A DNA stretch of 64,000 nucleotides from Squalus acanthias (taxonomy: Eukaryota). A program made the translations under genes and the position numbers. Location: contig CM059431.1 in the NCBI GenBank assembly GCA_030390025.1, forward strand, positions 115,632,001-115,696,000. Reading direction: 5' to 3'. Below are positions 9,653 to 64,000 of the stretch, one piece after another (within the stretch, counting starts at the first letter, position 1; the number at the start of each line of letters is the position of its first letter). The notes beneath the pieces are model-generated. The model searched no databases and had not been told where the DNA came from. It was given only the letters and a program-made list of their open reading frames with translations.

Positions 9653-10314
9653 AGCAATAGATATAATTGATGGGACGGTGATAATGTAGTCAATGAAGTA
9701 AGATGTCATTACCAGTCACAGCATTGTGCTCTCAATCTGTTTAGTAACCTGCTGAATACCTTGACAAAATAATCTGCCAGAAAAGAATGTCCCTTTAAGA
9801 ATATAAATGTGACTGCACTTTTTCATTGAAATACATAAAAATATAACAAATGTCTGATAATATAAAAAATGATATTGAATATATAAAAATAGTTGAATGG
9901 ATGAAACTGAACGGTTAATTCCAATTTCAATGAAAAAAACCAAGATAAATTCCTGCCAGGAGCGAATAGGATAGTATGGGTGAAACAGGAAAAATGGCAA
10001 AAAGGGACAATTTTAGACTGGTGGGCTGGAATTTTCTTTACCTGGGCGGGTCCGGTGTGGGCGGGGGCCATGTCGGGTCCAGAGCCCGTTGCCACCTCCA
10101 TCCCACTGTTGAAAATTAATTTACCTTAATGGGGTCTATTAAGCCCACCCAGCGCATTACCCGGCCCAATGAGATGGAGCAGGTCTGGTGACATCATTCA
10201 TGACGCGTTTTCAGACGGGATCTTTAAAGGGACCATGGCCACATTAGATTTGAATGTTAATCTAACATAGTGCTGTCAGTGCGCTACAGCATTGGAGTGC
10301 TGCAAACACTGACA

Positions 10315-10554
10315 ATGACTGCACAGAGGCAGAGGGCTGCACCCAGATTCTCCGATGACGCCCTCCATATGCTTATGGAGGGAGTCAGAGCATGCAGGGG
10401 GGTCCTCTTCCCTTCCGATGGACAGAAGAGACCTCCCCAGGAGACCAAGACAGCCTGGTTGCAGGTTGCAGAGGAGGTCACAAGCAGGGATGTGTTCAGG
10501 AGGACCTGGGTGCCGTGCCTCAAACGTTCCAATGATCTCATTAGATCAGGAAAC
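10315..10554 (+). pseudogene. Harbinger Myb/SANT-like (trihelix) protein exon 1 remnant
   Basis: MTAQRQRAAPRFSDDALHMLMEGV...LFPSDG...AWLQVAEEV...RRTWVPCLKRSNDL parallels 44092-44328. Later exons are deleted. Confidence 0.8.
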
Positions 10555-10759
10555 ATTAGTACAAAGCCACACTCACCTTTATCCTGCTGTGCCTGTCATC
10601 ACATCACCATCACTCTGCCTTCCCAAACCGACTCCTGCACATCCTTACTCACACCAACATACCTTGCATGTCCACCCATCCCTCTCTATCTACCTACATG
10701 ATCACAGCCCCATCTCACTAGCCACCCCTCACACTCACCCTCATCCTAGTGCAATCATA

Positions 10760-18180: not shown

Positions 18181-18944
18181 GGCCCGAAAATTAGACCTAA
18201 TACGCGAGAGTACGCACTGTGTACTCTCGCGTATTAGTTCCAGAATTGCCGGTTTCTCGCATGCACTGCGCATGCACGGGAAACCGGCACTTCGTGTATT
18301 GCAAAGGGGGCGGTTCCTAAGTGAACCGCGTGCGCGCTACAGGCTGTGCGCACGCAGTGCACTTAGTTTTTTTTTCAGGTTTGAACGCGCAGGTAAGTGG
18401 TGAAGATTTTACACATAAAGAAAGCAGGCGTAGGACCCCCTTTTAACAAGGTAAGTAGTTAATTAAGTGTTATTTTAAATTTTTTTCAACAGGTTTATCT
18501 TTTTTAGAGACTTTAAAGAAAGGTAAGTTTATTTTTATAACTTTTAAAAAGATTTTAAATTTTTTCAAAAATTTAATTTTTTGTTTAAAGTGGTTAATTT
18601 ATTTAACTATAGTTATTTTATTAATGTGATGGCTTTTTAAAAAAATTAATTGAGGTTTAGCTGTTCTTTTGGGGGCTTGTAGTATTCATAGCTTTGACAG
18701 CCCTTGCTGTCAAAACTATGAATGAAAGATGGTGTGCTGCCATTGGCTCTAACTGGCCCACGTGATCCCAGAGCTCGCACAAACTAATTGCGCCTCTGGG
18801 ACACGCAAGCACTGCACGCCGGCAACAGGGAGAGGCCCTGAAACTGAAGTTCGTGTGGGCCCGAAACAAAAAGGTAGGCGCGGAGTGCGATATCGCGGGG
18901 AATCCTTACCCCCGCGGGAACAATCAATGTTTAATTTCTGGGCC
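18181..18944. mobile_element. Harbinger-type MITE with hairpin-rich ends and an AT-rich core
   Basis: TIRs GGCCCGAAAATT / AATTTCTGGGCC, ATG on both flanks. Confidence 0.8.
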
Positions 18945-21639: not shown

Positions 21640-22103
21640 ATAAAAATAGAAAATGCTGGAGATACTCAGCAGGTCAGGCAGCATCTGTGAAGAGAGAAAC
21701 AGAGTTAACGTTTCAGGTCGATGACCTTTCATCAGAACTGGAAAAACGTAGGAAATGGAACAGATTTTTAAGCAAGTGTAAGGGCAGGGAAATGGGGGAG
21801 GGGATGAAAGAACAAAAGGGAAGGTCTGTGATATGATAGGAGGCAGGAGAGGTTAAGAGACATTAAGAGATATTCAAGGCAAAAGGAATTGGTAATGGGA
21901 CAGGTTAAGAAACAAAGGATGGCTCGAGATGAAGTGTGAATTGCGCTGGCAGAATGAAAGACAGCCGTCATGTGGGAGGGAAGAAAAAAAGGCACAAACA
22001 AAAAGTGTGGATAAAATATATATATGTGATAGGGGCCGAGGTTATGATCTGAAATTGTTGAACTCTATGTTGAGTCCAGAAGGCTGTAAAGTGCCTAATC
22101 GAA
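21640..22103 (-). mobile_element. Penelope-like element (family A): end of the GIY-YIG ORF plus 3' UTR
   Basis: Minus strand reads FRLGTLQPSGLNIEFNNFRS* (PLE endonuclease C-terminus). Flanks AGCTTTTCTTAAT / AGCTTTTCCAAT look like a TSD. Confidence 0.85.
21703..21739 (-). ncRNA. Minimal type I hammerhead ribozyme motif (family A, intact)
   Basis: AGUU-CUGAUGA-A-AGGUC(AUC)GACCU-GAAA-CG-UU-AACU: stem I AGUU/AACU, 5-bp stem II, palindromic AACGUU in place of stem III. Confidence 0.8.
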
Positions 22104-37175: not shown

Positions 37176-37306
37176 TCTGATGAAGGGTCATCGACCTGAA
37201 ACGTTAACTCTGTTTCTCTCTCCACAGATGCTGCCTGACCTGCTGAGTACTCCCAGAATTTTCTGTTTCTATTTCAGATTTCCAGATTCCGCAGTATTTT
37301 GTTTTT
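37176..37306 (+). mobile_element. Penelope-like (family A) terminal fragment starting at the hammerhead core
   Basis: CTGATGA-A-GGGTC-ATC-GACCT-GAAACGTTAACT (37177-37209) followed by the family A tail. Confidence 0.85.
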
Positions 37307-37476
37307 GAAATAATTGTGTCTATTACAAATATTTCACAGCATCATTTAAACCTCACTATGTGAGAAATCACAGGGTGTAGATCCATAAAATAGCATGTTG
37401 GAGCACCAATGGGTGGGGCGAATGAAAAGAAACATATGGTTACAAGACCTTAAAAAATTCCAGAGTTTTTGAGGAG

Positions 37477-40148: not shown

Positions 40149-40376
40149 AATTGAGAGGTCGCACAACACCAGGTTATAGTCCAACAGTTTTATTTGAAAT
40201 CACAAGCTTTCGGAGCTATCGATCGCCCCTTCCTCAGGTGAAGTACTTCACCTGAGGAAGAGGCGATCGATAGCTCCGAAAGCTTGTGATTTCAAATAAA
40301 ACTGTTGGACTATAACCTGGTGTTGTGCGACCTCTCAATTTTGTCCACCCCAGTCCAACACCGGCATCTCCGCATC
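40149..40376. mobile_element. Penelope-like (family B) foldback insertion: 192-bp palindrome plus 3' tail
   Basis: Arms 40149-40244 / 40245-40340 match at 95/96. TSD CTTCATCAATATA (40137-49, 40376-88). The right arm and tail match 62719-62850. Confidence 0.92.
40200..40289. ncRNA. Pair of divergent minimal hammerhead motifs (40200-40241 minus, 40248-40289 plus)
   Basis: UCAC-CUGAGGA-A-GGGGC(GAUCGAUA)GCUCC-GAAA-GC-UU-GUGA. The plus copy has one stem II mismatch. Confidence 0.75.
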
Positions 40377-41825
40377 TTCATCAATATAGGCATAGAGTAC
40401 AAATGCAAGGAAGTTATGGTGAACCTTTATAAAACACTGGTTCGGCCACAACTGGAGTATTGTGTCCAATTCTGGGCACCGCACTTTAGGAAGGATGTGA
40501 AGGCCTTAGAGAGGGTGAAGAAAAGATTTACAAGAATAGTTTCAGGGATGAGGGACTTCAGTTATGTGGCTAGACTGGAGAAGCTGGGGCATAGAAGGTT
40601 AAGATGAGATTTGATCGAGGTGTTCAAAATCATGAGGGGTCGAGACAGAGTAGATAGAGAGAAACTGTTCCCCTTGGTGGAAGGGCCAGAGGACACAGAT
40701 TTAAGGTGATTGGCAGAAGAACCAAAGGCGACATGATGAAAAGCTTTTTTACACAGCGAGTGGTTAGGATCTGGAATGCATTGCCTGAAAGGGGGGTGGA
40801 GGCAGATTCAATCGTGGCTTTCAAAAAGGAATTGGATAAGTACCTGAAGGAAAAAAAATTGCAGGGCTACGGGGAAAGGGTGGGGGAGTGGGACTAGCTG
40901 AAGTGCTCTTGCAGAGAGCCGGTACGGGCTCGACAGGCAGAATGGTCTTCTATTGTGCTGTAGCCATTCTATGATTCTACATATGTGTCATTTTCAGGCT
41001 AGTTTCATGAACGCAGAAGTGTGTTCAGGCCAGCTGAGAAGCCAGAAGCCAATGCAGGACTATAATAAAAATGCTTTTTAAAAACTAAAATGGCGGATAT
41101 GAAATAAAGTGAGAAAATAACTTCCCGAGTGGAATTATTACACGTTTTACTTACTGAAGCTTACAATATGGACATGCAGAGGGAAGATTTCCTCTGTGTA
41201 GCAAAATCATAAACACATTCCTTATAAATGGGTTCATGGTTTTCTTGCACACAGAGGAAATTTTCCCTTGTAACTGGCTAACCAAAGGGGATATTGGTAC
41301 TTTAAACGAAGCTTCAAACAAAAGTATATGGAGGTTCTTTTGATGTTTGGAGTGAGGCTGATGGATTTCATTTTTTGGTACTTTTTGTTTATTATATTTG
41401 AGGGCCGTTGAGGGGTTTTCCGTGCAAAACTGGAGCAAATTAAACGATTCATTTTTAACAATGTTACATTGAAATGCAAGATCCAGCTCACTTTTCATTC
41501 ACCGGCTGGTTCCTTTCTGTAAAAGGAAAAATTGTACTGTTTCTTAGAATAAAAACACTGTAGATTCATCATTCACAGGAAAGGATGTTTTGACTTTTTC
41601 CCTGAGCTTCTGCAGCAGTCATCAAAGGGATTAGGATAAAGGGACAGTTCAAAACAAGTTCAGACCGCCATTTGAAACCCTTTTCAAGAGACGAGTCTCG
41701 GGAAATCCAGAACACTGTGGTTTTTCTGTACCAAAAAAAAATCATTAAATACTTTTACCTTATATGGGGATCTTTCATTTACCAACCGCTGCAAATCAGT
41801 GATGTTCCAAGGGCAGATTTCTCCA

Positions 41826-42718: not shown

Positions 42719-44091
42719 AGATACCTATAACACGGTATTTATCAAACAAAACTAAATATTTCATTGAAGTAGTCGATTCTGTGAAATTCTGACTGAGATT
42801 ATTGACAAAGTAACAAATAAATCTGGGCTGGGAAATTGGAGCTGTTTGCGCCAGCTGTTAAAGCCGGTTTGGGAAAAAAATGGCGGTCGGCTCGCTTCTG
42901 CCCACTTCCAGCACGGGTCGGCAGCGCTGCCATTGCCTGCGCTTGCTTCAGATATTTAGATGAGCCAGATTGTGACGTCAATCGGTGTGCAACACTGAAT
43001 TGACGCGTGATCTGGTATTTTGGACGTTGCTGCTCTTTTAAAAATTTTCATCTGCAGAAGGCAGCTCACCTTTAAGAGGTGCAGACTGCCTTTAAGAGGA
43101 GTGGGCTAGCTTTAAGTAAAGCTAGACTCGCTCGAACAACGGGAACTTCGGCCCCCTGCTGAGCACACAGCCTACCTGTCAGCAGCGCGTTCAGCACTGG
43201 GCTGTGCGCTGCAATCATTATAATTAGCAGGCAGCACAAAATTGACGTGTCGCTTTTTGTGAAGGGATAATTACTAGTCCTAGCCCCTTTAGGGCTACCC
43301 CAGATCAGGTGTATTCCCCAGATGTTCACTTTCAACTAAAGTTTGAGGTAGCTGAATCCTAAAGACGCTTAATTGGGTCGAACGGTCTGGACCATCTCTC
43401 CCTAAAGGAAAGGAACAACCTGAAGATGTTACCGTCCTCCAGATAGCACTTTTAATAAGTTTAGCTAGACTGTAACGTTCTGGATATTATGAGGGTTCGG
43501 ATAACTCCCCCAGAATTCTGCAACTCCTCACCAAAGAGCGTATAGAGATTGAGTTCGCAAGTTTGATACAGAAGTATTATGTGAGACAATTCTAAAAATA
43601 TATAGATTTATTAAAGAACCGACATATAATTACAGTAGGTGTTTCAATCGCAACATTAACAGTTCCAAAAAGAGAAAGCTTACAATTCTTATTTTCAGAT
43701 CTTAACTTCTCTACAGTTTTATAGTTCTTAGGGGGAGAAATTCAGTATCGCCCCATTTGGGGCGCAATTATCGGCCAGGCGCAAAGATTGGCGCCTGGTG
43801 CTAATTATCGCCTCCGACTGCAAACTTGACTTTTATCGCCCCTGGAGGTGATTGGAGCACTAAATCAGGTGCTACGCACCTGTCTTAAGGTGCAAAGGCC
43901 GAGGAGCGAGACGCTAACTCAGAGCGCGGGCGCAGCGCAGGTGCTGTCAGTTAGTGATGGAACACAGACACACTGCCGCCAGACAGTTCTTAAAGGGGAG
44001 GGTCGATCTTGCACTCCAGCCACAGCCTGCTCATTGGAGCCTTGAATCTCGGCCTGGAGAGACCTGTGCCTAAATCTTCCAGCCAAGGACT

Positions 44092-46072
44092 ATGGAGAGG
44101 GTGAGAGAACGAGCTCAGCGCTTCAGTGAGCGGGCCTTGGATGCTCTGGTTGGCGCGGTGGAGCGCAGAAGATCTATACTCTTCCCTGAGAGTGGCAGGA
44201 GGCCTTTGCCGCGCGAGTACAGAAGAGTGTGGAGGGAGGTGGCTCAGAGCATCTCCTCCAGGAGCATGGTGCCCAGGACCCATATACAATTACGAAGAAA
44301 GTTCAACGACCTCACTCGGATCGTCAGGGTGAGTGGCTTTTTTTCAATACCTCTCCATCCCTCCATCTTAACCTCACTCTATGGCCAGAGGGTCTTAAAA
44401 TCCCAATGCACAACACTCATCCATCACCTATGGCCCTCTCATGAAACATACACGCACGTTCCACACTTTGCATACAGTAAGGGCTATTCACCTATGGGAG
44501 GCACATCAGGCAAGGCCATGGCTGCATACAGTAAGAGCTATTCACCTATGGGAGGCACATCAGACAAGACCATGGCTGCATACAGTAAGGGCTATTCACC
44601 TATGGGAGGCACATCAGGCAAGACCATGGCTGCATACAGTAAGGGCTATTCACCTATGGGAGGCACATCAGGCAAGACCATGGCTGCATACAGTAAGGGC
44701 TATTCAACTATGGGAGGCACATCAGGCAAGACCATGGCTGTATATTTACTCAGACGCCATCCTTTTTCTTGCAGGCCAAGCTATCTCATAATAGGAGACA
44801 GCAGCAACGGACGGGTGGAGGGCGGCCTCAGCTGCAACCCCTCAGCGATCTTGAGGCACGCGTCCACAGGATTGTGGCAAGCCGGGTGATCGGTCCCGTC
44901 GCCACTGGAGACGCCGACCCCATTCTGGACAGCAATGGTAAGGTCATCACCTTTTTGTCCTCTGTCCTTCCACTTGTCCCTCACAACACCAGCCTTTGAC
45001 ACTTTCAATCCAACTTACTAAATCGCTGCACTCATTCCTCCCTTACTGCCCCCCTGTCTTCATGCTAAAGCCACTCTTGTACCTCCCTGCTTTCAGATGG
45101 TGATTCACCAGCTGAGGAGACGGGCCCTCAAGCTGCCAGTGGGAGTGAAGCTGCAGCCGAGGAGGAAGATGAAGGCGGAGCATCAGCGCCACCCTCTCCC
45201 TTGAAGCCCATGCCCACACTGGGAACACGCCTTCCCTGGAGGGGAGCAGGGGGGAAGGGTCTGATGAGGGTGAAGCTCCAGGACCCAGCGGGCTGCAACA
45301 ACGCCATGGGGTTAGGGAAGCTCAGGGGCCTTCTCCCCGGAGGGAGAGTATGCCAGCGAGTCCTACTGCACTGGACGCAGAGGAGGAGCGGCGCATCACT
45401 GAAATGAACACCCAGGCGGTGGACATGCACACTGAGCTCATGGGTGCAGTGGGAAGGGTGCCCGAATGCATTGAATCACTGGCAAGGCGTGTGGAGCACT
45501 TCGCTGCAGCACAGGCGGATGCCACGCAAATATTTAGTGCTGCAATTCAGTCAATGGCTGCCATGAACCCATCTCTGACTGCTCTCCTGCAGACTCATAT
45601 TGAGGCCACGCGAGCACTGACTGCTGCCATCCTCGATGGTTCGTACACATTTCCCCGGGGCTCTCACCGCGCCGCAGCAGGCCAGCAATCTGTGCTCCAG
45701 CAGATTGCTCCGGATGCTGAAGTGCTGCCCCGTTGGAGTGCCAGTGTGTCGGTCGAGCAGGAAGTTGCTGTCCTCTCTCAAGATGACAGCATTCCTGCTG
45801 CCACCACTGTCACTTCTCCACTGCACTTGCCACTGCCTGTAGGACAGACTGCTGCCGCCCATGCAGAGTTGGTGCAGTCTGCAGCCGGGCCCTCCAGGCC
45901 CAGAGCTGGTCGAGGCCGTCCTTCAAGGGCATCTGCAGTCTCAGGTTCTGACAATCAGCAGCCTTCCACCAGCCTTGCTGCAGCCACTGAGGTCCCATTA
46001 CGGAGGAGCAGTAGGGTGGGAAGGGGGGAAGTGCGCAAGGGAAGGAGATCACCCTCGAAGGGCAAAAAGTAG
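44092..46072 (+). pseudogene. Harbinger Myb/SANT-like DNA-binding protein gene; exons 44092-44328, 44775-44937, 45097-46072; frameshift near 45200-45240
   Basis: Trihelix-like RFSERALDALV...LFP...VWREVA...RTHIQLRRKFNDL, then AKLSHNRR...RTGGG. GT-AG introns in phases 0 and 1. The spliced frame stops at 45407 while another frame runs to 46072. Confidence 0.85.
44469..44740 (+). repeat. Tandem repeat, 5 x 54 bp, in intron 1 of the Myb-like gene
   Basis: Unit GCTGCATACAGTAAGGGCTATTCACCTATGGGAGGCACATCAGGCAAGACCATG, 0-2 substitutions per copy. Confidence 0.97.
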
Positions 46073-46388
46073 GAGGTGTGACAAAATGTTGGTCATTTTT
46101 TTATTAAAGGCTGAGGTTCGTGGTCAAACTTTTGAACATTATCTCCAGGTTATGAGAACCAGTTCTGTTAATGACTGTGTTTTTGTGTTTCTTTCTATTG
46201 GTTTGTCATGAGGAAATGACACACACAGAGTTTGCGAAATAAATAAGTTTTTGTATTCAAAATGTACATGTTTGGTCTTTGGAATCATTGCTGCCTTGGC
46301 CGGCTTAGGGGTTGCGGGTTGGTTTCATTCATGTTGTTCTCAATGGCAGAAGCCATTTCCTCAGCAGGGGCCTAGAAGTGGCTTGCTA

Positions 46389-47618
46389 TCAGCCGTTGAC
46401 GACGGCCCTTCCAGTTTCTACATTGTGGGCCTCCCTCCCGCCTTGGTGCTGCTGATGATCATCCTCCTCCTCTTCCTCCTCCTCTTCCTCCTCCTCCTCT
46501 CGTGGTGCTCTAAGGCCTGGTGGCATTGGCTGGGTTCTGAGGATTGCCAGGTTATGCAGCATGTAGCACACAACTACGAAGTGGGAAACTCGCTCAGGCG
46601 AGTACTGCAGGGCTCTTCCAGAATGATCCAAACAGCGGAACCGTTGCTTGAGCACGCCGATTGTGTGCTCAACGATGTTCCTGGTAGCTTGATGGCTCTC
46701 GTTGTACCGCAGCTCAGCAGGGGTATTGGGCGTACGGAGCGGTGTCATCAGCCAGGTGCTCAGTGGATATCCCTTGTCCCCGAGAAGCCAACCAACTGGC
46801 TGATGCGATGCCTGGAAAAGTTCTGCCACAGTAGTCTGGTGCAGGATGAATGCATCGTGGCAGCTGCCAGGATAGTGGGCATTGACAGCGAGTATCAGCT
46901 GTCTGTGGTCACAGACCAACTGAACGTTTAAGGAATGGAACCCCTTTCTGTTGCGGAAATCCTCGGCATTCTCATGCGGAGCACGCAAAGCCACATGCGT
47001 GCAGTCAATGGCGCCCTGCACCATGGGGAAGCCCGCTATCCTAGCAAAGCCCATTGCGCATTCTTGCTGCTTGTCTGGGGTCATGGTGAAAGTGATGTAC
47101 TCTCGTCTCCTTTTAAAGAGGGCATTTGTGACCTGACGGATGCAGCAATGCACCGCGAACTGGGAGACATTGGCGATGTCTCCAGTAGCTGATTGAAATG
47201 AGCCAGTGGCATAAAAGTTCAGAGCCACTGTGATCTTCACTGCCACCAACAGAGACGTCCTGGACCTCAGTTGAGGCTGCAGATCTGGCTGCAGCAGGTG
47301 GCAGAGCTCAGTGACTACCTCCTTGCTGAAGCGCAGCCTTCGCAAACACTGCTCCTCAGACATATTAATATATGTGAATTGTTGGCGATATACCCTGGGA
47401 GGGTAAGGTCTCCTGTACAGAGGCCTGTTGGCCCTCCTCCGTCTGGCCATGATTGCCACTCTCTCTCTGCGTCTCTGTGTCCTCCGATTCTGGTGGCGCA
47501 GGATGACGCCCCCAATCAGTGCAGCCCCTATAGTCTCTTGGCAATCAAAGTTATGAAGGTCAAAAACCAAAGTACCTGCAAAGTTATAATCAGTAGCCAA
47601 AACTATCTCACACAGCAT
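46389..47618 (-). CDS. Harbinger (HARBI1-family) DDE transposase, 409 aa open
   Basis: Motifs RLRFSKE, LNFYATGSFQ, FPMVQGAIDCTH, NRKGFHSLNVQLVCD, PGSCHDAFIL, LLGDKGYPL, RNIVEHTIGVLKQRFRCL, acidic tail. Confidence 0.93.
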   Translation of the reverse strand: MLCEIVLATDYNFAGTLVFDLHNFDCQETIGAALIGGVILRHQNRRTQRRRERVAIMARRRRANRPLYRRPYPPRVYRQQFTYINMSEEQCLRRLRFSKEVVTELCHLLQPDLQPQLRSRTSLLVAVKITVALNFYATGSFQSATGDIANVSQFAVHCCIRQVTNALFKRRREYITFTMTPDKQQECAMGFARIAGFPMVQGAIDCTHVALRAPHENAEDFRNRKGFHSLNVQLVCDHRQLILAVNAHYPGSCHDAFILHQTTVAELFQASHQPVGWLLGDKGYPLSTWLMTPLRTPNTPAELRYNESHQATRNIVEHTIGVLKQRFRCLDHSGRALQYSPERVSHFVVVCYMLHNLAILRTQPMPPGLRAPREEEEEEEEEEEEDDHQQHQGGREAHNVETGRAVVNG

Positions 47619-49638
47619 TGACTCAATGCAGAAGTCTCTCTTTCTCTCTCTCCGAATGTCTCTCTCTCTCTCTCAGAACGAGTGGTGCAAAAATGTCAAC
47701 CACAGAGAAGGACAGGAAGTAGCCCCCTTTAAATAGCGCCCCCCCAGCCCCACAGCAACTGGGGAGCGTTCCAGTCTTCCGGTCGTTGGTTGCGCCAGGC
47801 AGAAAGGATGGGGGCGCCTCTCAATTTCCGCTCCGGGGCGCCATAAGGGCGTTGCACCCTCGTATGATGTCAAGATCTGCGTGCGCAGGAGATCGCGGCG
47901 GTAAAGTTTAGTGCCGCCGCAAAATGTCCAGTTAATTTCGCGAGCGGCGCAAACATCGCTGCGCCCGGGCGCTAGTTGCTTTGCGCCCCATTAGCGCCCT
48001 CTTAAGGCATTAACGGGAGGTGCAACCAACTGAATTTTTCCCCCTTAGTCTTTATTCCAGGATATCCACCAAAATCAAATACAGTACAATACCTTGATCC
48101 CCGAGGTACAAAGAGTTGTAGACTTACAGAGCCGCCTCTGAAGCCTGAGAATTGCTTTGCCCCTTTACAGTGAGACTATCATCCCATTTGAAAGTTCAAT
48201 ATTTATATCCTTTTTCAGTGGTATTTCCTTTGAAGTTTTCTGCTGATGTAAGCTAATTATCTCTAGTCATTTTTCTGCTGACCCCTGCTATTCTTACAGT
48301 CACCTCAGCTGGTAGCAATGAAGAATTATGTCTCTACCTCAGGTGTCCCAAGCCCACCATAAAAAACAGTGTCACAGCAGGTGCATCTTTTACTTGATGT
48401 CATTTTTACAAAGGCATATGTTTCTTAATTTTATGTGTTTCTTTCCAAAGTGTAATTTAGAACACCTTAACAGGGTGTACCATTGTGTTCTTTCCAACGC
48501 TTCAGACTTCAGGAGCCTCCAACCTCCTGTTTCAATAAGGTTATTGATTCAGTGCCAACAACTTATCTTATCCCAATAGCCTGAATGCTGTTAACAATAC
48601 AGCTTCTCCATTGTTAGGTTTTTAGATTTTCAAGCCCAGTTTGTCATGTTTTAATAAGGCCAGAATTCTTTCATAGAATGGTGTATTTTTCTGAATATGG
48701 CTTATTCCTTCACATTTGAACGGGCGCCTGGCGGAACCCGCGCCCATTTTTTAGTCGTGTTGAATTCCTGGGCCCTGGAATGTCTGAATAATCGGCTCCA
48801 AAATGTTTGTGGACCTGTGTGTGGTACTTGTTGAATGAAACTATTAGTGCTATTAATGGTTCAAATTTTTAAAATTCCCTAAATTTGTTTTAATCTTACT
48901 GTAATAACATATTTTGTGTTCTTTTGAAAAGACTAATTTGAAATGTGTGCAAGAATTCAGTTGAGCTTGGAGTATTTTTTTCACTGTTAAAACTACCTTC
49001 AGCTTTTTACGTCTTATATTTGGTAAGATTTCTTCATTCAAATAGATGAAAAAATAGCAAGGTAAAAGGATTGCAATTATTTTTTTTCATGATTTTATCC
49101 CCCTAAGGGCTCGATTTTGCCAGGGATGAGGAGGCAGGTTTGGAGGCGTGTGAGGTGTTAAAATGGCAAAAAAATGGCGGGCGGGCCCGATCCCGCCTCC
49201 ATCCCGCCTCCGAGCAATTTTCCCAGAATTGGGGTTACAGACCCCATTTCCATCCCGCCTCCAAGAGGCGGGATAGGCTCTAAAGGCCCTTAACAACCAC
49301 TTAATTGCCTCTATAATCCAATTTTGAGAGGCCTTTCTGATTTTTAGACATTTACCCCATCCTACACGCCTCCTCTGGAACATGCCAGGTAATCCTGGCG
49401 GCCTCACAAGTGGATTGCTTAGTAATAGCTGCAGCTCCACCATTAAAAAGGAGTTTTCAGCAATCATCATTTGCAGGTGGCAGAACTTTGTTGTCTCAGG
49501 TCTGGGGGAACTCTTAGCAGGCCTACTCATTGTTGTGGATGTTTGTAGCCTGAGACCCATCTCCAGTGTGACCTCCTGGGAAACCTCTCTCCCCACCTTG
49601 ACTGAGCACTTCCTCATACTGAGGTATATAGCAGACGC

Positions 49639-53296: not shown

Positions 53297-54965
53297 ACAA
53301 TATATGAATTTAAAAACAATTTTATTCCTGTGTGGGATGGAAAATAGTGACATCTTTAGTACTCATATATAAACATGAACAGGAAGATATTTTTTTCAGA
53401 AAAAGTCGTGTTTGAAGCTGACTTTGGAGATTGATTCAGAGAGTGCCAGGAGATTTCCTTTTTAAAAAGACAACTTCTGTAAACTGTCAGATTTGTGGAT
53501 AAGGATGACATTTCACCTCGGCCTTTCACCCACATGACCTTGAGGTTACTCTTCAGGATGTGCTGTGGTAGTCTGGAGCTCATCTATGCTGGGGTTATGT
53601 ACTTGACACCTGTGCATACTGAAAGCTTAGTTACTTCCTACTTGGCAGAAACACTTAATCACCCAATCATCTCCATAATCAGAGTGGATTAAAAGCCAGT
53701 TTCTCTCGCGCTGCAACAGCTGGTATTTCTGACACAATAAAGAACATGCTAAATGAGGGACAGTGATAAACAGCTGGCCTCATCCTTCTCATTTGTTCCC
53801 TTGCTTGCTCTTGCAAAAACTATGGGCTAACTCAAGGGATTAGGTTAAAAATGAAATATTTGTTACATTCAATGTAGAGAAAAATAGTCAAGGAAAATAC
53901 AGCATCAGAACTTCAACTTTTCGCGTAGTCTTTTAAATGTTTACAGTTTCTATATTTAGCTAAGCATGTAATGGAAAGTATCACTGCCTTCTAGATTTAT
54001 AACTGTTCAGATTGAAACCATTCACTTACGAAACAGCACATGGTTATTGTGCACTTTAACTAGGTTGTTTGAAATGTGAAGTCCTCTATCAGACAACTTG
54101 GAGGGATTGGAGGAGGAGAGGAAAAGACTTTCCTCAGATGGTCTGATGAAATGTTACCTGCTACTCCAGTGTCTAGGATTCACTGGGAGCAGGGGACAAT
54201 GTTAAAGTTTGCAGTCTATTATAACAATGATATATGAGGCAGTCTGCAGCAATTCTCAGCCTTTCTTCAAAATGTCAGCCTCCACCTAAACACATGGTGA
54301 TGTTTATGGGGTGGGGCGGGGGGCGGTGGGGGCTGATCTTCCTCTGCTTTGTGCCCACTCAATTGGCTCTTCTCACACTGGCACCAACCTTTCAGATGTT
54401 TTGATGAGATCTATTCTGTTTGTTCTCAATTGTTCCATCCTGCTGTTATAATACAAGATCTTGGTCATCAATGTATGCAGCACAAATTATTCCTTTCAGT
54501 AATTTCGCCTGATACTTGCTCTGTATTTCCTGGTAGCAGTGGTTTTAAAAGCTGAGATTCTCAGTCAGCGTCCATCTTTTGCTCCCTTTTGTTGTACTCG
54601 AACTTTTCTGAAACTATTTTAATGATTTTTGGTTTGAACAGTTTCCTTGAGGTGAAAAGAAAGAAAGAAAGACTGACTTACATTTATATAACAACTTTCA
54701 CCACCTTAGGATGTCCCAAATCGCTTTACAGTCAATTAAGTACTTTTGAAGGGTAGTCACTGCTGTAATGTAGGAAACACGGCTGCCAATGTTGTGCACA
54801 GCAAGATCCCACAAACAGCAATGTGATAATGACCAGAAAATCTGTGTTTTTTTTAGTAGTGTTGGTTAAGGAAATAAATATTGACAAGGACACCAGGAAG
54901 AACTTAAAAGCAGAAAATGCTAGAAATACTCAGCAGGTCAGGCAGCATCTGTGGCGAGAGTCAAC

Positions 54966-57260: not shown

Positions 57261-57832
57261 CGTTAACTCTGTTTCTCTCAACACAGATGCTGCCTGACCT
57301 GCTGAGTATTTCCAGCATTTTCTGTTTTTATTTCAGATTTCCAGCATCCGCAGTGTTTTGCTTTTGTACCATCCCTGCTTTTGTTCGAAATAGTGCCATG
57401 GGATCTTTTACGTCCTCCTGAGTGGGCAGACGGGGCCTCGGTTTAACGTCTCATCCGACGGATGTGCAGCACTCCCCAAGTACTGCCCTGGAGTATCAGC
57501 CTTGGTTTTTTGCTCAAGTCCCTGGAGTGGGAACCCACAGTCTTCTTGAATGCACAATCTTCTGACTCAGAGGCGAGAATGCTACCACAAAGCCACGGCT
57601 GACTCACAATCTAAGTATTGTTCTTGTTCTACAGCTCATTAACAATTCTGCCAGAGATGATTAGACCATCTCCAGGCATGTTATAATAATCAAGCAGGGC
57701 CAGATGTGAATCCTGACCGTTAGTAATCTTCAACAAGTGTTGTGCAATTTTGAAGCGTTATCTCAGCTTTTCCTCTGGAATTTTTGGTACTCAGGTTACA
57801 AGACTACAGTCCCAATTTTTTGGGGTATGGGA

Positions 57833-59758: not shown

Positions 59759-60366
59759 ATAGAGTCATAACGGCACAGAAGAAGGCCATTCGGCCCATCG
59801 AGTCCGTGCCAGCTCTCTGTAGAGCAATCCAGTTTGTCCCATTCCCCCGTTCTATCCCCGTAGCCCTGCAAGTTGATTTCCCTCAAGTGCCTATCTAGTC
59901 TCCCCTTGAAAACATTCAGTGTCTCCGCTTCCACCACTTCCGTCGGCAGCGAGTTCCAGGTTCTCACCACTCGCTGTGTAAAAAAGTTTTTCCTCACGTC
60001 CCCCTTGTATCTCTTGCCCAAAACCGTAAATCTGTGTCCCTAGTCCTTGTACCATCAACTAGTGGGAAAAGCCTTTCCTCGTCTAGCCTATCCAAACCCA
60101 TCATAATCTTGTACACCTCTTTTGCTCTAATGAAAACAAATCCAGCTTCTCCAACCTGTCTTTGTAGCTAAGATCCCCCATCCCCGGAACCATTCTGGTA
60201 AATCTCCTCTGCACCCTCTCAAATGCCTTCACATCCTTTCTAAAGTGTGGTGACCAGAACTGGACACAATACTCCAGTTGTGGCCTAAGCAGCGCTTTAT
60301 AAAGGTTCAGCATAACTTCTCTACTTTTGTACTCAATACCTCTATTTATGAAACCCAAGATCCCAT
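59759..60366 (-). mobile_element. CR1 3' fragment; its tail continues at 58848-58865 beyond the MITE
   Basis: GILGFINRGIEYKSREVM...QRRFTRM and KNFFTQRVVRTWNSLP, with a (CATAGAGT) tail. Confidence 0.9.
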
Positions 60367-61657
60367 CAGTCCTATCTACAAATGTGACATCATGACTGAG
60401 GAGGTGCAACAGGAAGAAGTGCCTACACGCCCCTCCCCAGTGGAATTTGTCAGCGTTTACGCTGTTTTTCTGGGTTTCTAGCACCCTTCTGCCAAAGTTA
60501 CAATGGCCAAGCGGGAGAACCCCCACCCCCCACCCCCCCCCCCCCCCGGCAGAAATTCACCCCCATTGTTTTCCTCCCAATTCTATCCAATTCTCTCCTA
60601 ATGATTGTGACTCATGTTGGGACTGTTTCATAGTTATTGGCTGCCCAAACATTCATTCTTCATGTATGAGACAAATGGATTGTGGAGAACTTCATAGCTG
60701 TGCCCAATGTTGTCCTCACGCAAGAATAACAACAACAATTTATGTAGTTCCTTTAATGTAGAAAAATGTCCCAAGTTGCGTCACAGAGGCATGTACACTT
60801 TTCAGCAGAGATCACTTGATAGCCATCAGAGCACAAAGCCTGCCTGATTTTCTCCTCCCTATCCCAGAGACTTCCAGAGGTGAATTGTAGTGCCTTCATT
60901 TCCAGTCAGCTGAGATCAGACAAATGAACAAAGGTCAAAGATCGAACCTGTTGCCTCCCTGGCATACATGGCTCATGTGCTGCATTGTGTGGTGCATTTA
61001 CCTCCTAAGATATTGAGAAAGCAAAGACTTGTAAAGCAGGGAAGCCTTCCGAGCATTAAAACACAAACACAGTTGGCGACTGTGTTACTCCAGGCGTAGT
61101 CACTCAACCTGGAAATGGTAATAGAAAGTCAGGAGAGTGCTTGCGTGAAATTTCTGTCCCTTCCCCCAATGTGTCCATATCACTAGTTCACCCTCTTTAA
61201 TGTAGCTAAGATGCAGATGATGGGGCCCAAGAAAGCTAACAAGAGGGATCGGCCTTCGTCTTAAACTCTTTGTAGCAGTGAAACCTGAAGTGAAATTAAC
61301 AGCATCAAGTGGATTCAGCTGGTGTGCTCAGGCCAAATCCTCTGAATTGCCCTAAGGGCAAAACAGAGGACACAGCTAAGTAATTCCTGCGTAGATTTTA
61401 GATAGGGAATGGGGAGAAGGGTAACAGAGGCTTAGTGTAGGATTAGAACTATAGTATGGCGCTGTTCACTACCTATGCTGAATGACACCAGAGAGGGAAT
61501 GGCCATTATATCACTTACTGGTAAATTGTTTGCCATTTTTACTTCTGATTCTGTCCATCATTTAGTTTTTTGATTAATATGGCACCATTTTGCAACTTCT
61601 ATGACCTAGGGAAATGGCATATATAACCACGTTATAGTCCAACAGTTTTATTTGAAA

Positions 61658-61699
61658 TCACAAGCTTTCGGAGCTATCGATTGCTCCTTCCTCAGGTGA
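61658..61699 (-). ncRNA. Minimal hammerhead ribozyme motif in the inverted arm
   Basis: Exact reverse complement of 62722-62763. Confidence 0.8.
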
Positions 61700-62033
61700 A
61701 GTAAATTAGATACAGAATCGCCAAAGCATATATAGATAGAGAACAAAGCATGTGTACCTTACAATTGCAGACCACTAAATTAAATCATCCTGACTATCTG
61801 CCGAGGTGTGATAAAGTTAATCAAGTCAGCCAGGAAGGTACCACATCAAAGACATAGCAAGATACAACTGAGACAATGAGGTGTAGTTGCAGGGGTTCTA
61901 ACGTGCCAAAAGTTGCCGTCTGTATGTAAAACGAAAAGCTTTAAAATTTTTACTTTTTTACTGGGAAAATTTTTACTTTTTTACTGGGAATCACATCTGT
62001 GAACAAGCCAACGACGACTCGAGTCCGGATCAC

Positions 62034-62388
62034 TACCCACCAGGTACATGGTACATACTCATGTGACTCGGCCAACGTTGTCTACCTCATACGTTGCAGG
62101 AAAGAATGCACCGCGGCATGGTACATCGGCGAGACCATGCAGACACTGAGACAACGTATGAACGAGCACCGCGCAACAATCGCCAGGCAGGATTGTTACC
62201 TCCCAGTCGGGGAACACTTCAGCAGTCAAGGACATTCAGCCTCGGATCTGCGGGTAAGCGTTCTCCAAGGCAACCTTAGAAACACACGACAACGCAAAAT
62301 CATCGAGCAGAAACTGATAGCCAAGTTCCGCACTCATGAAGACGGTCTCAACCGGGATCTTGGGTTTATGTCACGATACATGACGTGA
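62034..62388 (+). CDS. GIY-YIG endonuclease domain, the C-terminal fragment of a PLE ORF (within ORF 61999..62388)
   Basis: SCDSANVVYLIRCRKEC..WYIGET..LRQRMNEHR..EHFSSQGH..RKIIEQKLI..GLN: VVY/YIG, conserved Arg, Glu and Asn, and a CCHH motif. No stops. No true start codon. Confidence 0.9.
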
Positions 62389-62721
62389 TCCGGACTCGAG
62401 TCGTCGTTGGCTTGTTCACAGATGTGATTCCCAGTAAAAAAGTAAAAAAAATTTCCCAGTAAAAAAGTAAAATTTTTTAAAGCTTTTCGTTTTACATACA
62501 GACGGCAACTTTTGATACGTTAGAACCCCTGCGACTACACCTCATTGTCTCAGTTGTATCTTGCTATGTCTTTGATGTGGTACCTTCCTGGCTGACTTGA
62601 TTAACTTTATCACACCTCGGCAGATAGTCAGGATGATTTAATTTAGTGGTCTGCAATTGTAAGGTACACATGCTTTGTTCTCTATCTATATATGCTTTGG
62701 CGATTCTGTATCTAATTTACT

Positions 62722-62763
62722 TCACCTGAGGAAGGAGCAATCGATAGCTCCGAAAGCTTGTGA
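62722..62763 (+). ncRNA. Minimal type I hammerhead ribozyme motif (family B)
   Basis: UCAC-CUGAGGA-A-GGAGC(AAUCGAUA)GCUCC-GAAA-GC-UU-GUGA. Predicted cut after 62759. AATAAA follows at 62769-74. Confidence 0.82.
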
Positions 62764-64000
62764 TTTCAAATAAAACTGTTGGACTATAACCTGGTGTTGT
62801 GCGACCTCTCAATTTTGTCCACCCCAGTCCAACACCGGCATCTCCGCATCATATATAACCACCGCAGGGGTTCCAACTGTGCCTGGATTTTATTGTTAGT
62901 TGCAGCAACGGTTTTACAATTACCTTTACTGTACACAACGGAAGGACCCAAAACAAATTCTATTTGTTTGCTTGGACAAGTGTGTTCTGGGCAGATTTCA
63001 AATAGCCATTTGAATGTTATTCCTTATGATCACAACCCACTTTTAGCATTGCCATCTTCTCACCTTTGTAAGAGTAATTCACTTGTTTAATGGATTTAAA
63101 TCATCTAACAAACATCTATCACCTCTCAATGCAAAATGTGGCAGTCTTTCTCTGTCACCAGAGGTTTGAATCCTGGCATGGATTTCTCAGACACGGCACA
63201 TCTTAGTGCAGCTTCTGGGTTTTTGTCCATCAGTTGCGAGCCGCACTCTGACTTCATCAGAATGATTGCTGAGAATGTTGACTCGCACAATGAGATGCAC
63301 CAGACCTGCCCCTCTCTCCATCCAGAACGCAGTTTGGAAACTGTTTGCCCTTTTCCATGACGTGTCGTGCTGGAGCTGCTCGTTATTGGTTGGACTTGCT
63401 TTCTTCTGCTGGCCTGGAGCAGTTATTCCGATTGGTCTGTCTCCATACAATGTTGCTGGTGATTCCATGGTGCTGAAATCTGGTGTTCTCACCCGTGTTA
63501 CACACCATTTTAGCAGATAATCAATTAGCAGTAACCAAGGAAGGAAAGCGCGCACAACGATCAAAAATCACTCGGACACTCAGCTTTACATCTTGCCATT
63601 TTGCCAACAAACGCACAAATAGATTAAAGTTCACATGCGTCATGTCGTGCAAATATGATTATTGAGATCATATGCCCAACGATAGTGTCTATTAATCATC
63701 TTTTATTTACTAATCAAAAATTCAATTAGCCACATGTGACTAATGGCGAATGTAATGGACATCACTCTTCTAAAGTGCCAATCCCTGAAACTTGCTATAA
63801 GAGCATCAGACAGCGTGTGGTGACTGACTCACATTGGAATGTGGCCTGATGTGCTCTCAGAGACAGGTATACTTGCATGAACTTCCACTAGTCTCTATCT
63901 GCCTCTTTTATTAGTGCCTAAATACTTCTTTCGCCTATACTGCAAATACTGGGGACGATGTAATAACTGAATCTTAAATAAGGAGGTATTGGACAGACAG

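Follow-up and report, generated by a model that had tools for sequence, protein, structure and literature searches.

A probable 5'-truncated Penelope-like insertion with an inverted copy of its 3' end in Squalus acanthias

Results

Within a 64,000-nucleotide stretch of Squalus acanthias DNA (the window), the segment 61631-62852 is very probably a 5'-truncated copy, dead on arrival, of an abundant Penelope-like retroelement (PLE) of the kind that carries an endonuclease, together with an inverted copy of its 3' end. The right 816-819 bp form the natural 3' end of the element, part of which is repeated in mirror image by the left 403 bp (Table 1). By every feature that can be checked in the sequence of a truncated copy, this is an EN+ Penelope-like insertion, and the Penelope-like identity proposed in a preliminary description of the locus is borne out by nuclease motifs, homologues with a reverse transcriptase (RT) upstream, hammerheads, the inverted layout and the target-site duplication (TSD).

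Table 1. Features of the insertion at 61631-62852 and of a second copy in the window.
Feature	Position	Strand	Remarks
TSD, left copy	61618..61630	.	13 bp, or 10 bp with the right copy's first three bases assigned to the element
Left arm, repeating the element's 3' untranslated end in inverted orientation	61631..62033	-	403 bp; equivalent to 62385-62790
Minimal type-I hammerhead motif, left arm	61658..61699	-	own descriptor
Microhomology CAC at inner joint (3 bases)	62031..62033	.	common to inverted arm and natural coding sequence; contigs of 4/4 runs diverge at 62031, not 62034; also from relatives' in-frame upstream residues
3' end of element ORF, GIY-YIG core	62034..62388	+	no start codon, no RT; stop TGA 62386-88
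GIY-YIG core residues	VVY 62077-85, YIG 62122-30, R 62149, E 62305, N 62350	+	
CCHH residues of nuclease	C 62095, C 62107, H 62215, H 62233	+	
Right arm, natural 3' untranslated region of element	62385..62790	+	23-25 bp tandem duplication at 62428-62472
Minimal type-I hammerhead, right arm	62722..62763	+	stem I 4 bp, core from 62726, stem II 5 bp
Helix III remnant of right-arm hammerhead		+	2-base palindrome; predicted cut 62759/62760, U at cut position
AATAAA hexamer	62769..62774	+	mirrored in left arm; putative signal
One-sided tail, right side only	62791..62849	+	59 bp; 62 with ambiguous end at 62852
TSD, right copy	62850..62862	.	one contig record starts at its first base
Second insertion of same Penelope family	40149..40375	+	97-bp arms, no loop, centre at 62718 equivalent

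The near-identical inverted arms first described were confirmed by global alignment of 61631-62033 with 62385-62790, in which 398 of 406 columns are identical. The eight differing columns all lie within the inner 150 bp and comprise two A/T-run changes (five columns) and three point changes, the outer ~257 bp being identical. Also as first described, the loop (62034-62384) is a stop-free 351 bp, inside an open frame (61945-62388) that closes with TGA 62386-88, and each arm holds an AATAAA (62769-74 and its mirror). The range originally given for the unit, 61631..62850, holds for arms and loop but also takes in the 59-62 bp right-only tail (62791-62849/52). Eleven contigs of public run X3 diverge from the tail at a single base, 62821. 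No long direct repeat (direct pLTR or partial tandem) was found in 60000-64000, as expected for a truncated copy.

The claimed 13-bp TSD is present as a direct repeat (61618-30 and 62850-62) that abuts both insertion ends, with a chance expectation of ~4e-6 when 121 placements are allowed; because the right end is ambiguous by three bases, its length is 10-13 bp. Contigs of the family diverge from the reference at 62852-53 at their 3' ends (97 in X3; 17 and 9 in X6). The right TSD therefore begins with three bases that fit the element as well. On the left side, the element's continuation agrees with the target over four bases next to the joint, apart from one terminal mismatch. The inner arm boundary does lie at the stop codon, as had been noted, but to within three bases only: both inner boundaries share this ambiguity, 62031-33 being also natural upstream sequence in the contigs, and contigs of all four public runs continue upstream of 62031 with natural coding sequence.

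A second copy of the family at 40149-40375, 97-98% identical over its length, supports this explanation, since it is laid out in the same way, breaks at other points and is flanked by a clean 13-bp TSD (40137-149 and 40376-388). It interrupts an RT-coding LINE fragment, and its flanks are colinear with an RT-coding LINE at 28439-28125. Its left arm starts at the equivalent of 62814, which gives a 35-bp tail, and its centre is a perfect palindrome with zero spacer. Both of its arms end at 62718; a TATA-like run at 62682-62692, ~27-35 bases before that position, could mark a transcript 5' end near it.

The loop corresponds, by sequence comparison, to the last 117 residues of a Penelope-like ORF. 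It matched the Pfam GIY-YIG family at E 1.1e-4, its 22.9 bits lying just above the cut-off of 22.6. When a predicted model of the loop protein (mean pLDDT 67.9) was compared with known structures, the I-TevI catalytic domain ranked first (probability 0.99, TM 0.63, E 0.096) and no match reached the threshold of E<=0.001; a sequence search of solved structures returned a single match, at E 0.96. The CCHH residues (C21, C25, H61 and H67) are invariant in 24 of 24 aligned sequences. Searching longer proteins yielded 45 homologues at E<=0.001 among 102 candidates, and the best named ones are from sharks (Heptranchias 88%, Scyliorhinus 84%, Mustelus 83%). The best match, the 88% Heptranchias protein, has an RT upstream of the same domain; the RT domain PF00078 lies upstream in relatives P0001, P0009 and P0017 and is absent from the copy at 61631-62852.

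It is by these relatives that the family would be placed as Neptune-type. A C-x2-5-C-xx-C linker between RT and endonuclease is described as marking Neptune and Nematis elements (PMC8557442). Relatives carry this linker, as C-x4-C-xx-C, ~12 residues upstream of the point at which our copy breaks off; it is present in 21 of the 29 non-fusion homologues that extend far enough upstream. A literature search for Penelope or Neptune elements in sharks found no publication on this family among the 19 entries listed.

Of the intact GIY-YIG domain claimed earlier, the catalytic core stands; the upstream C-x4-C-xx-C is missing, and the first in-frame ATG of the loop frame comes after the YIG motif. With a GIY-YIG core that has neither a start codon nor an RT, the copy, judged from its reading frame, cannot produce the nuclease without splicing and cannot mobilize itself.

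In twelve of the 45 protein matches (including P0016, P0022, P0039 and P0041), a named host-gene model is joined to this nuclease sequence, and four of these twelve start to match at residue 22-23, at an AG/G acceptor-like site at 62099 (window 62098-62101). The family thus seems to have been exonized, or mis-annotated as an exon, in several shark genes.

Three other readings of the element were set aside. Selenocysteine read-through of TGA 62386-88 was dropped, as the proteins of relatives stop at this very position and a TAG variant occurs in the family too. A non-LTR retrozyme, defined in a preprint (10.64898/2026.07.22.740005) as non-coding head-to-tail tandem units each with a hammerhead, was rejected on the head-to-head layout and the PLE coding sequence. 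A MITE or fold-back DNA transposon, with fixed terminal inverted repeats reaching both ends, was rejected because the left ends of the two copies differ (62790 and 62814 equivalents) and the tail lies outside the inverted repeat.

The mirror arm is best explained, at somewhat better than even likelihood, by priming at both ends of the target. The RT-endonuclease of the element would nick the two target strands ~13 bases apart, and each target 3' end would prime a cDNA near the 3' start sites of the RNA, at 62849-52 on the right and at 62790 on the left, the offset between the two giving the tail. The cDNAs would stop after ~820 and ~400 bases and then be joined at the CAC microhomology. The loop would be the portion copied once, and its fit to the nuclease domain a coincidence of two truncation points in a high-copy family. 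We infer two-ended priming because purified PAc, the Poseidon element of Anolis carolinensis, is reported to cut and extend both strands and to start at two adjacent RNA sites, which delimit the tail (Frangieh et al. 2024, PMC11167929). Inverted 5'-truncated copies with a 30-40 bp tail are described as typical of such elements (PMC8557442, PMC3846280). Our tail of 59-62 bp exceeds that published length and so counts against the explanation, implying that the left start was not at a canonical site. Both arms carry an A at the equivalent of 62508, where nearly all contig depth has G, so both derive from one source element.

A fold-back of one cDNA could also have produced the mirror arm, and we regard this as a serious though less probable route: a cDNA extended to 62031 would pair by its 3' end with its own CAC at 62385-87, DNA synthesis would copy back to 62790, and the product would join the left target end. 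The three-base microhomology and the shared rare allele at 62508 fit this route equally well; moreover, the second copy has its zero-spacer palindromic centre, one loose end in X7 is a perfect palindrome, and self-priming has been proposed from such palindromes (PMC3846280). However, a zero-length loop would be sterically awkward without added bases, the left arm of the second copy starts 35 bp from the end, as for a second RT start site, and PAc extends both target strands in vitro (PMC11167929). We lean towards two-ended priming over fold-back.

The preliminary description had asked whether the coincidence of loop and nuclease domain is chance or marks a defined pLTR border at the stop codon. 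Seven of the 14 joints in the listed contig table are inversions, five via the left-arm stub and two labelled as opposite strands, with eight further joint rows of no stated kind left out of this count. The sense sides of the seven resume at 62205, 62215, 62657, 62766, 62817 (twice) and 62833; none resumes at the start of the nuclease domain or repeats the loop of our copy. Because the second copy and the contig joints break elsewhere, none repeating the loop, these sequences do not support a fixed arm-loop-arm unit with a border at the stop codon. Chance is the favoured half of the original question, with two truncation points among many copies. On the assumption of uniform ends over 1 kb and of an assumed copy number, both ends would lie this near the stop codon and the domain start in 4e-4 of copies (~4 per 10,000). 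The joint of the 61631-62852 copy itself was not seen among the contig pieces listed (32, with 32,538 more), and summed contig depth was not taken as copy number.

A softer form of the idea is that inverted arms tend to end in the stop-codon region, either because the RT pauses at a hairpin there or because a pLTR border is defined there. The right edge of the loop would then not be chance; this we consider improbable. Four of the five left-arm stub joints end within 62384-62392 (p ~0.04 within the 20 detectable places), a weak hint of a preferred stop that also counts against our overall explanation, and the lowest folding energy among 39 windows of 60 bases over the element's 3' end belongs to 62354-62413, across the stop codon. 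However, the hairpin there is no better than shuffles (z -0.83, 33/200 as good), the stub reveals only ends at 62384-62403, so that slightly longer arms pile up at its edge, several stub joints are flagged as having an intervening sequence that is not known, and one of the five continues into the ORF. Other copies end at 62718 (in the window) and at 62084/62205 or 62747/62817 (in contigs), and the family has two stop variants in the contigs, TGA and a TAG with five more bases. A soft hot spot for inverted-arm ends at the stop codon is possible; that the family's arms end preferentially at a stop-codon hairpin, implying a built-in RNA pause or template-switch site at the border of ORF and 3'-UTR, is a claim we would bet against.

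The outward-facing hammerhead motif reported for each arm was recovered by our own descriptor, which found four minimal type-I cores in the 64-kb window, at 62726 (+), 61695 (-), 40237 and 21735, whereas 40 Markov shuffles yielded 0.025 on average. An Rfam search at E<=10 gave four chance-level matches, none of them a hammerhead. The right-arm hammerhead of the second copy is a fifth core, missed by the descriptor, in which one change breaks stem II. Stems I and II appear in the centroid fold of the right-arm hammerhead at 62722-62763, and neither the hammerhead/tail region nor the stop-codon hairpin folds more stably than its shuffles (z -0.5 to -1.6). In X3, a joint from a different copy, of no stated kind, takes up again precisely at the predicted cut site, 62760, plus one extra base (one of the 12 rows listed), which hints weakly that the RT ran off the end of a cleaved RNA.

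Read-through RNA of 61631-62852 is computed to fold into a ~400-bp duplex (MFE -848 kcal/mol). That ribozymes would trim this hairpin, as had been suggested, was not borne out. Each transcript strand carries one sense hammerhead, whose bases (42 of 42) are all paired to the other arm, and the computed cost of imposing the ribozyme fold is ~72 kcal/mol; with the hammerhead locked in this predicted duplex, trimming would be unlikely. Minimal hammerheads are reported to require a same-sense partner and to be weak even then (PMC4209133), and the PAc ribozyme is reported to have required protein (PMC11167929).

The accompanying idea of double-stranded RNA and small RNAs from the locus is plausible, its principle having already been demonstrated in Drosophila, where inverted Penelope copies are reported to yield siRNA in transformed flies (PMC3681739). 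That the locus, as a source of hairpin RNA (siRNA or ADAR substrate), plays a part in controlling the family is a much stronger claim, and one we hold to be quite unlikely. The predicted duplex and the Drosophila precedent speak for it. Against it, the hammerhead would be unable to fold within the duplex, nothing distinguishes this copy from many other fold-back copies, and the 47 of 96 ORFs of at least 100 aa that were scanned contained transposon-type families only and no host gene, although short exons would escape such a scan. Contigs of run X6, only guessed to be RNA, cover bins of the element and not the unique flank 62876-63139, from which neither transcription nor silence follows.

The insertion had been called very recent. 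Its relative youth stands, with an apparent empty allele, but 'very recent' goes further than the sequence shows, as the arms differ by three point changes and A/T-run changes, and so does present-day activity. In a contig of run X1 (1,214 bp, depth 4.15), the match to the reference begins at 62850, where the right TSD starts, and the 872 bases before it do not match the element's end, so that an empty site is apparently the simplest reading. This contig differs from the window at three places in ~330 bp and may represent another haplotype or a close species. The empty-site evidence is that of X1; X3 (~55% examined) and X7 gave no coverage of the flank 62876-63139. A further X1 joint (depth 5.9) links 62852 to 62887, with ~21 letters like the right flank and 34 skipped, and is probably a chance similarity, since the 1,214-bp contig is unbroken there.

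Relative to the family state in contig 28 of X7, the left arm has two private changes (one of CpG type) and the right arm one private change plus A/T-run changes. The three point differences in ~400 bp amount to 0.75% (95% range 0.15-2.2%). With the rate reported for the epaulette shark, 7e-10 per base per generation (PMC10587355), this computes to 1-16 million generations, an upper-side estimate because it also takes in errors of the RT and of the assembly, and the rate comes from another species. In relative terms, then, the sequence suggests a young copy. That the inversion is an assembly artefact from a chimeric or hairpin read is very improbable: none of the contigs listed crosses the joints of this copy, some of the changes between the arms fall in A/T runs, as consensus errors typically do, and such structures are reported to trouble assemblies (PMC8557442), but the TSD is exact over 13 bp, the tail is one-sided, the inner joint has microhomology, each arm carries point changes of its own, a second such copy lies within a colinear LINE and independent runs also contain inverted joints.

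Other features were seen in the window. A minimal hammerhead of a different sequence family lies at 21705-21740 (-), inside a short repeat that recurs at ~694-790, 37176-37307, 54905-54960 and 57261-57372. A DDE_Tnp_4 transposase ORF (46389-47672, -) adjoins a Myb/SANT-like ORF (44074-44889, +), a pair at 44074-47672 that we take to be Harbinger-like, and another Myb-like ORF lies at 10261-10701. Two short palindromes, 18194-18240 and 41180-41268, contain no hammerhead core.

Discussion

By itself the insertion adds little, since truncated Penelope-like insertions laid out in this way are already in the literature. It is nevertheless a clean specimen, with all four joints readable to the base in a family that is abundant and young, and the apparent empty allele would make it usable as a presence/absence marker. 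A catalogue of the family's joints could decide between two-ended priming and fold-back, a point left open in the literature cited here. Were the stop codon a pause site after all, the thousands of joints in the genome would be a direct read-out of how inverted repeats are built, and would separate the same two mechanisms at a step that has had no experimental demonstration so far.

The layout (PMC8557442), pairs of hammerheads on opposite strands (PMC4209133) and the dsRNA consequence (PMC3681739) are already published. With the canonical EN+ Penelope-like unit as described by Craig et al. 2021 (PMC8557442) and Arkhipova et al. 2013 (PMC3846280), the insertion has in common the 5' truncation, the head-to-head inverted terminal copy, the one-sided tail, the TSD, the terminal-repeat hammerhead and the C-terminal GIY-YIG with CCHH. 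It differs in having no direct pLTR or partial tandem, in its tail of 59-62 rather than 30-40 bp and in its TSD of 13 bp, compared with 8-10 bp in the Adineta examples. The Neptune-type shark PLE proteins P0001-P0010 are 70-88% identical over the domain and have the same C-terminus, whereas 61631-62852 retains only the last 117 residues.

As in the published account of PAc (PMC11167929), the target is AT-rich, both strands are used, the tail lies between two start points and the hammerhead lies upstream of the tail. In contrast, PAc belongs to a different clade, judged by the cysteine linker of our element's relatives, and is an active ORF, whereas ours is a truncated genomic copy known from sequence. 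The minimal hammerheads of metazoan PLEs described by Cervera and De la Pena 2014 (PMC4209133) resemble ours in being type I, with a 4-bp helix I, an extra base before stem II and a palindromic helix III remnant. In that study, opposite-strand pairs ~100-700 bp apart are reported in Schistosoma and tied to truncated PLEs; the motifs here, predicted from sequence, stand ~1,030 bp apart, with a U at the cut position.
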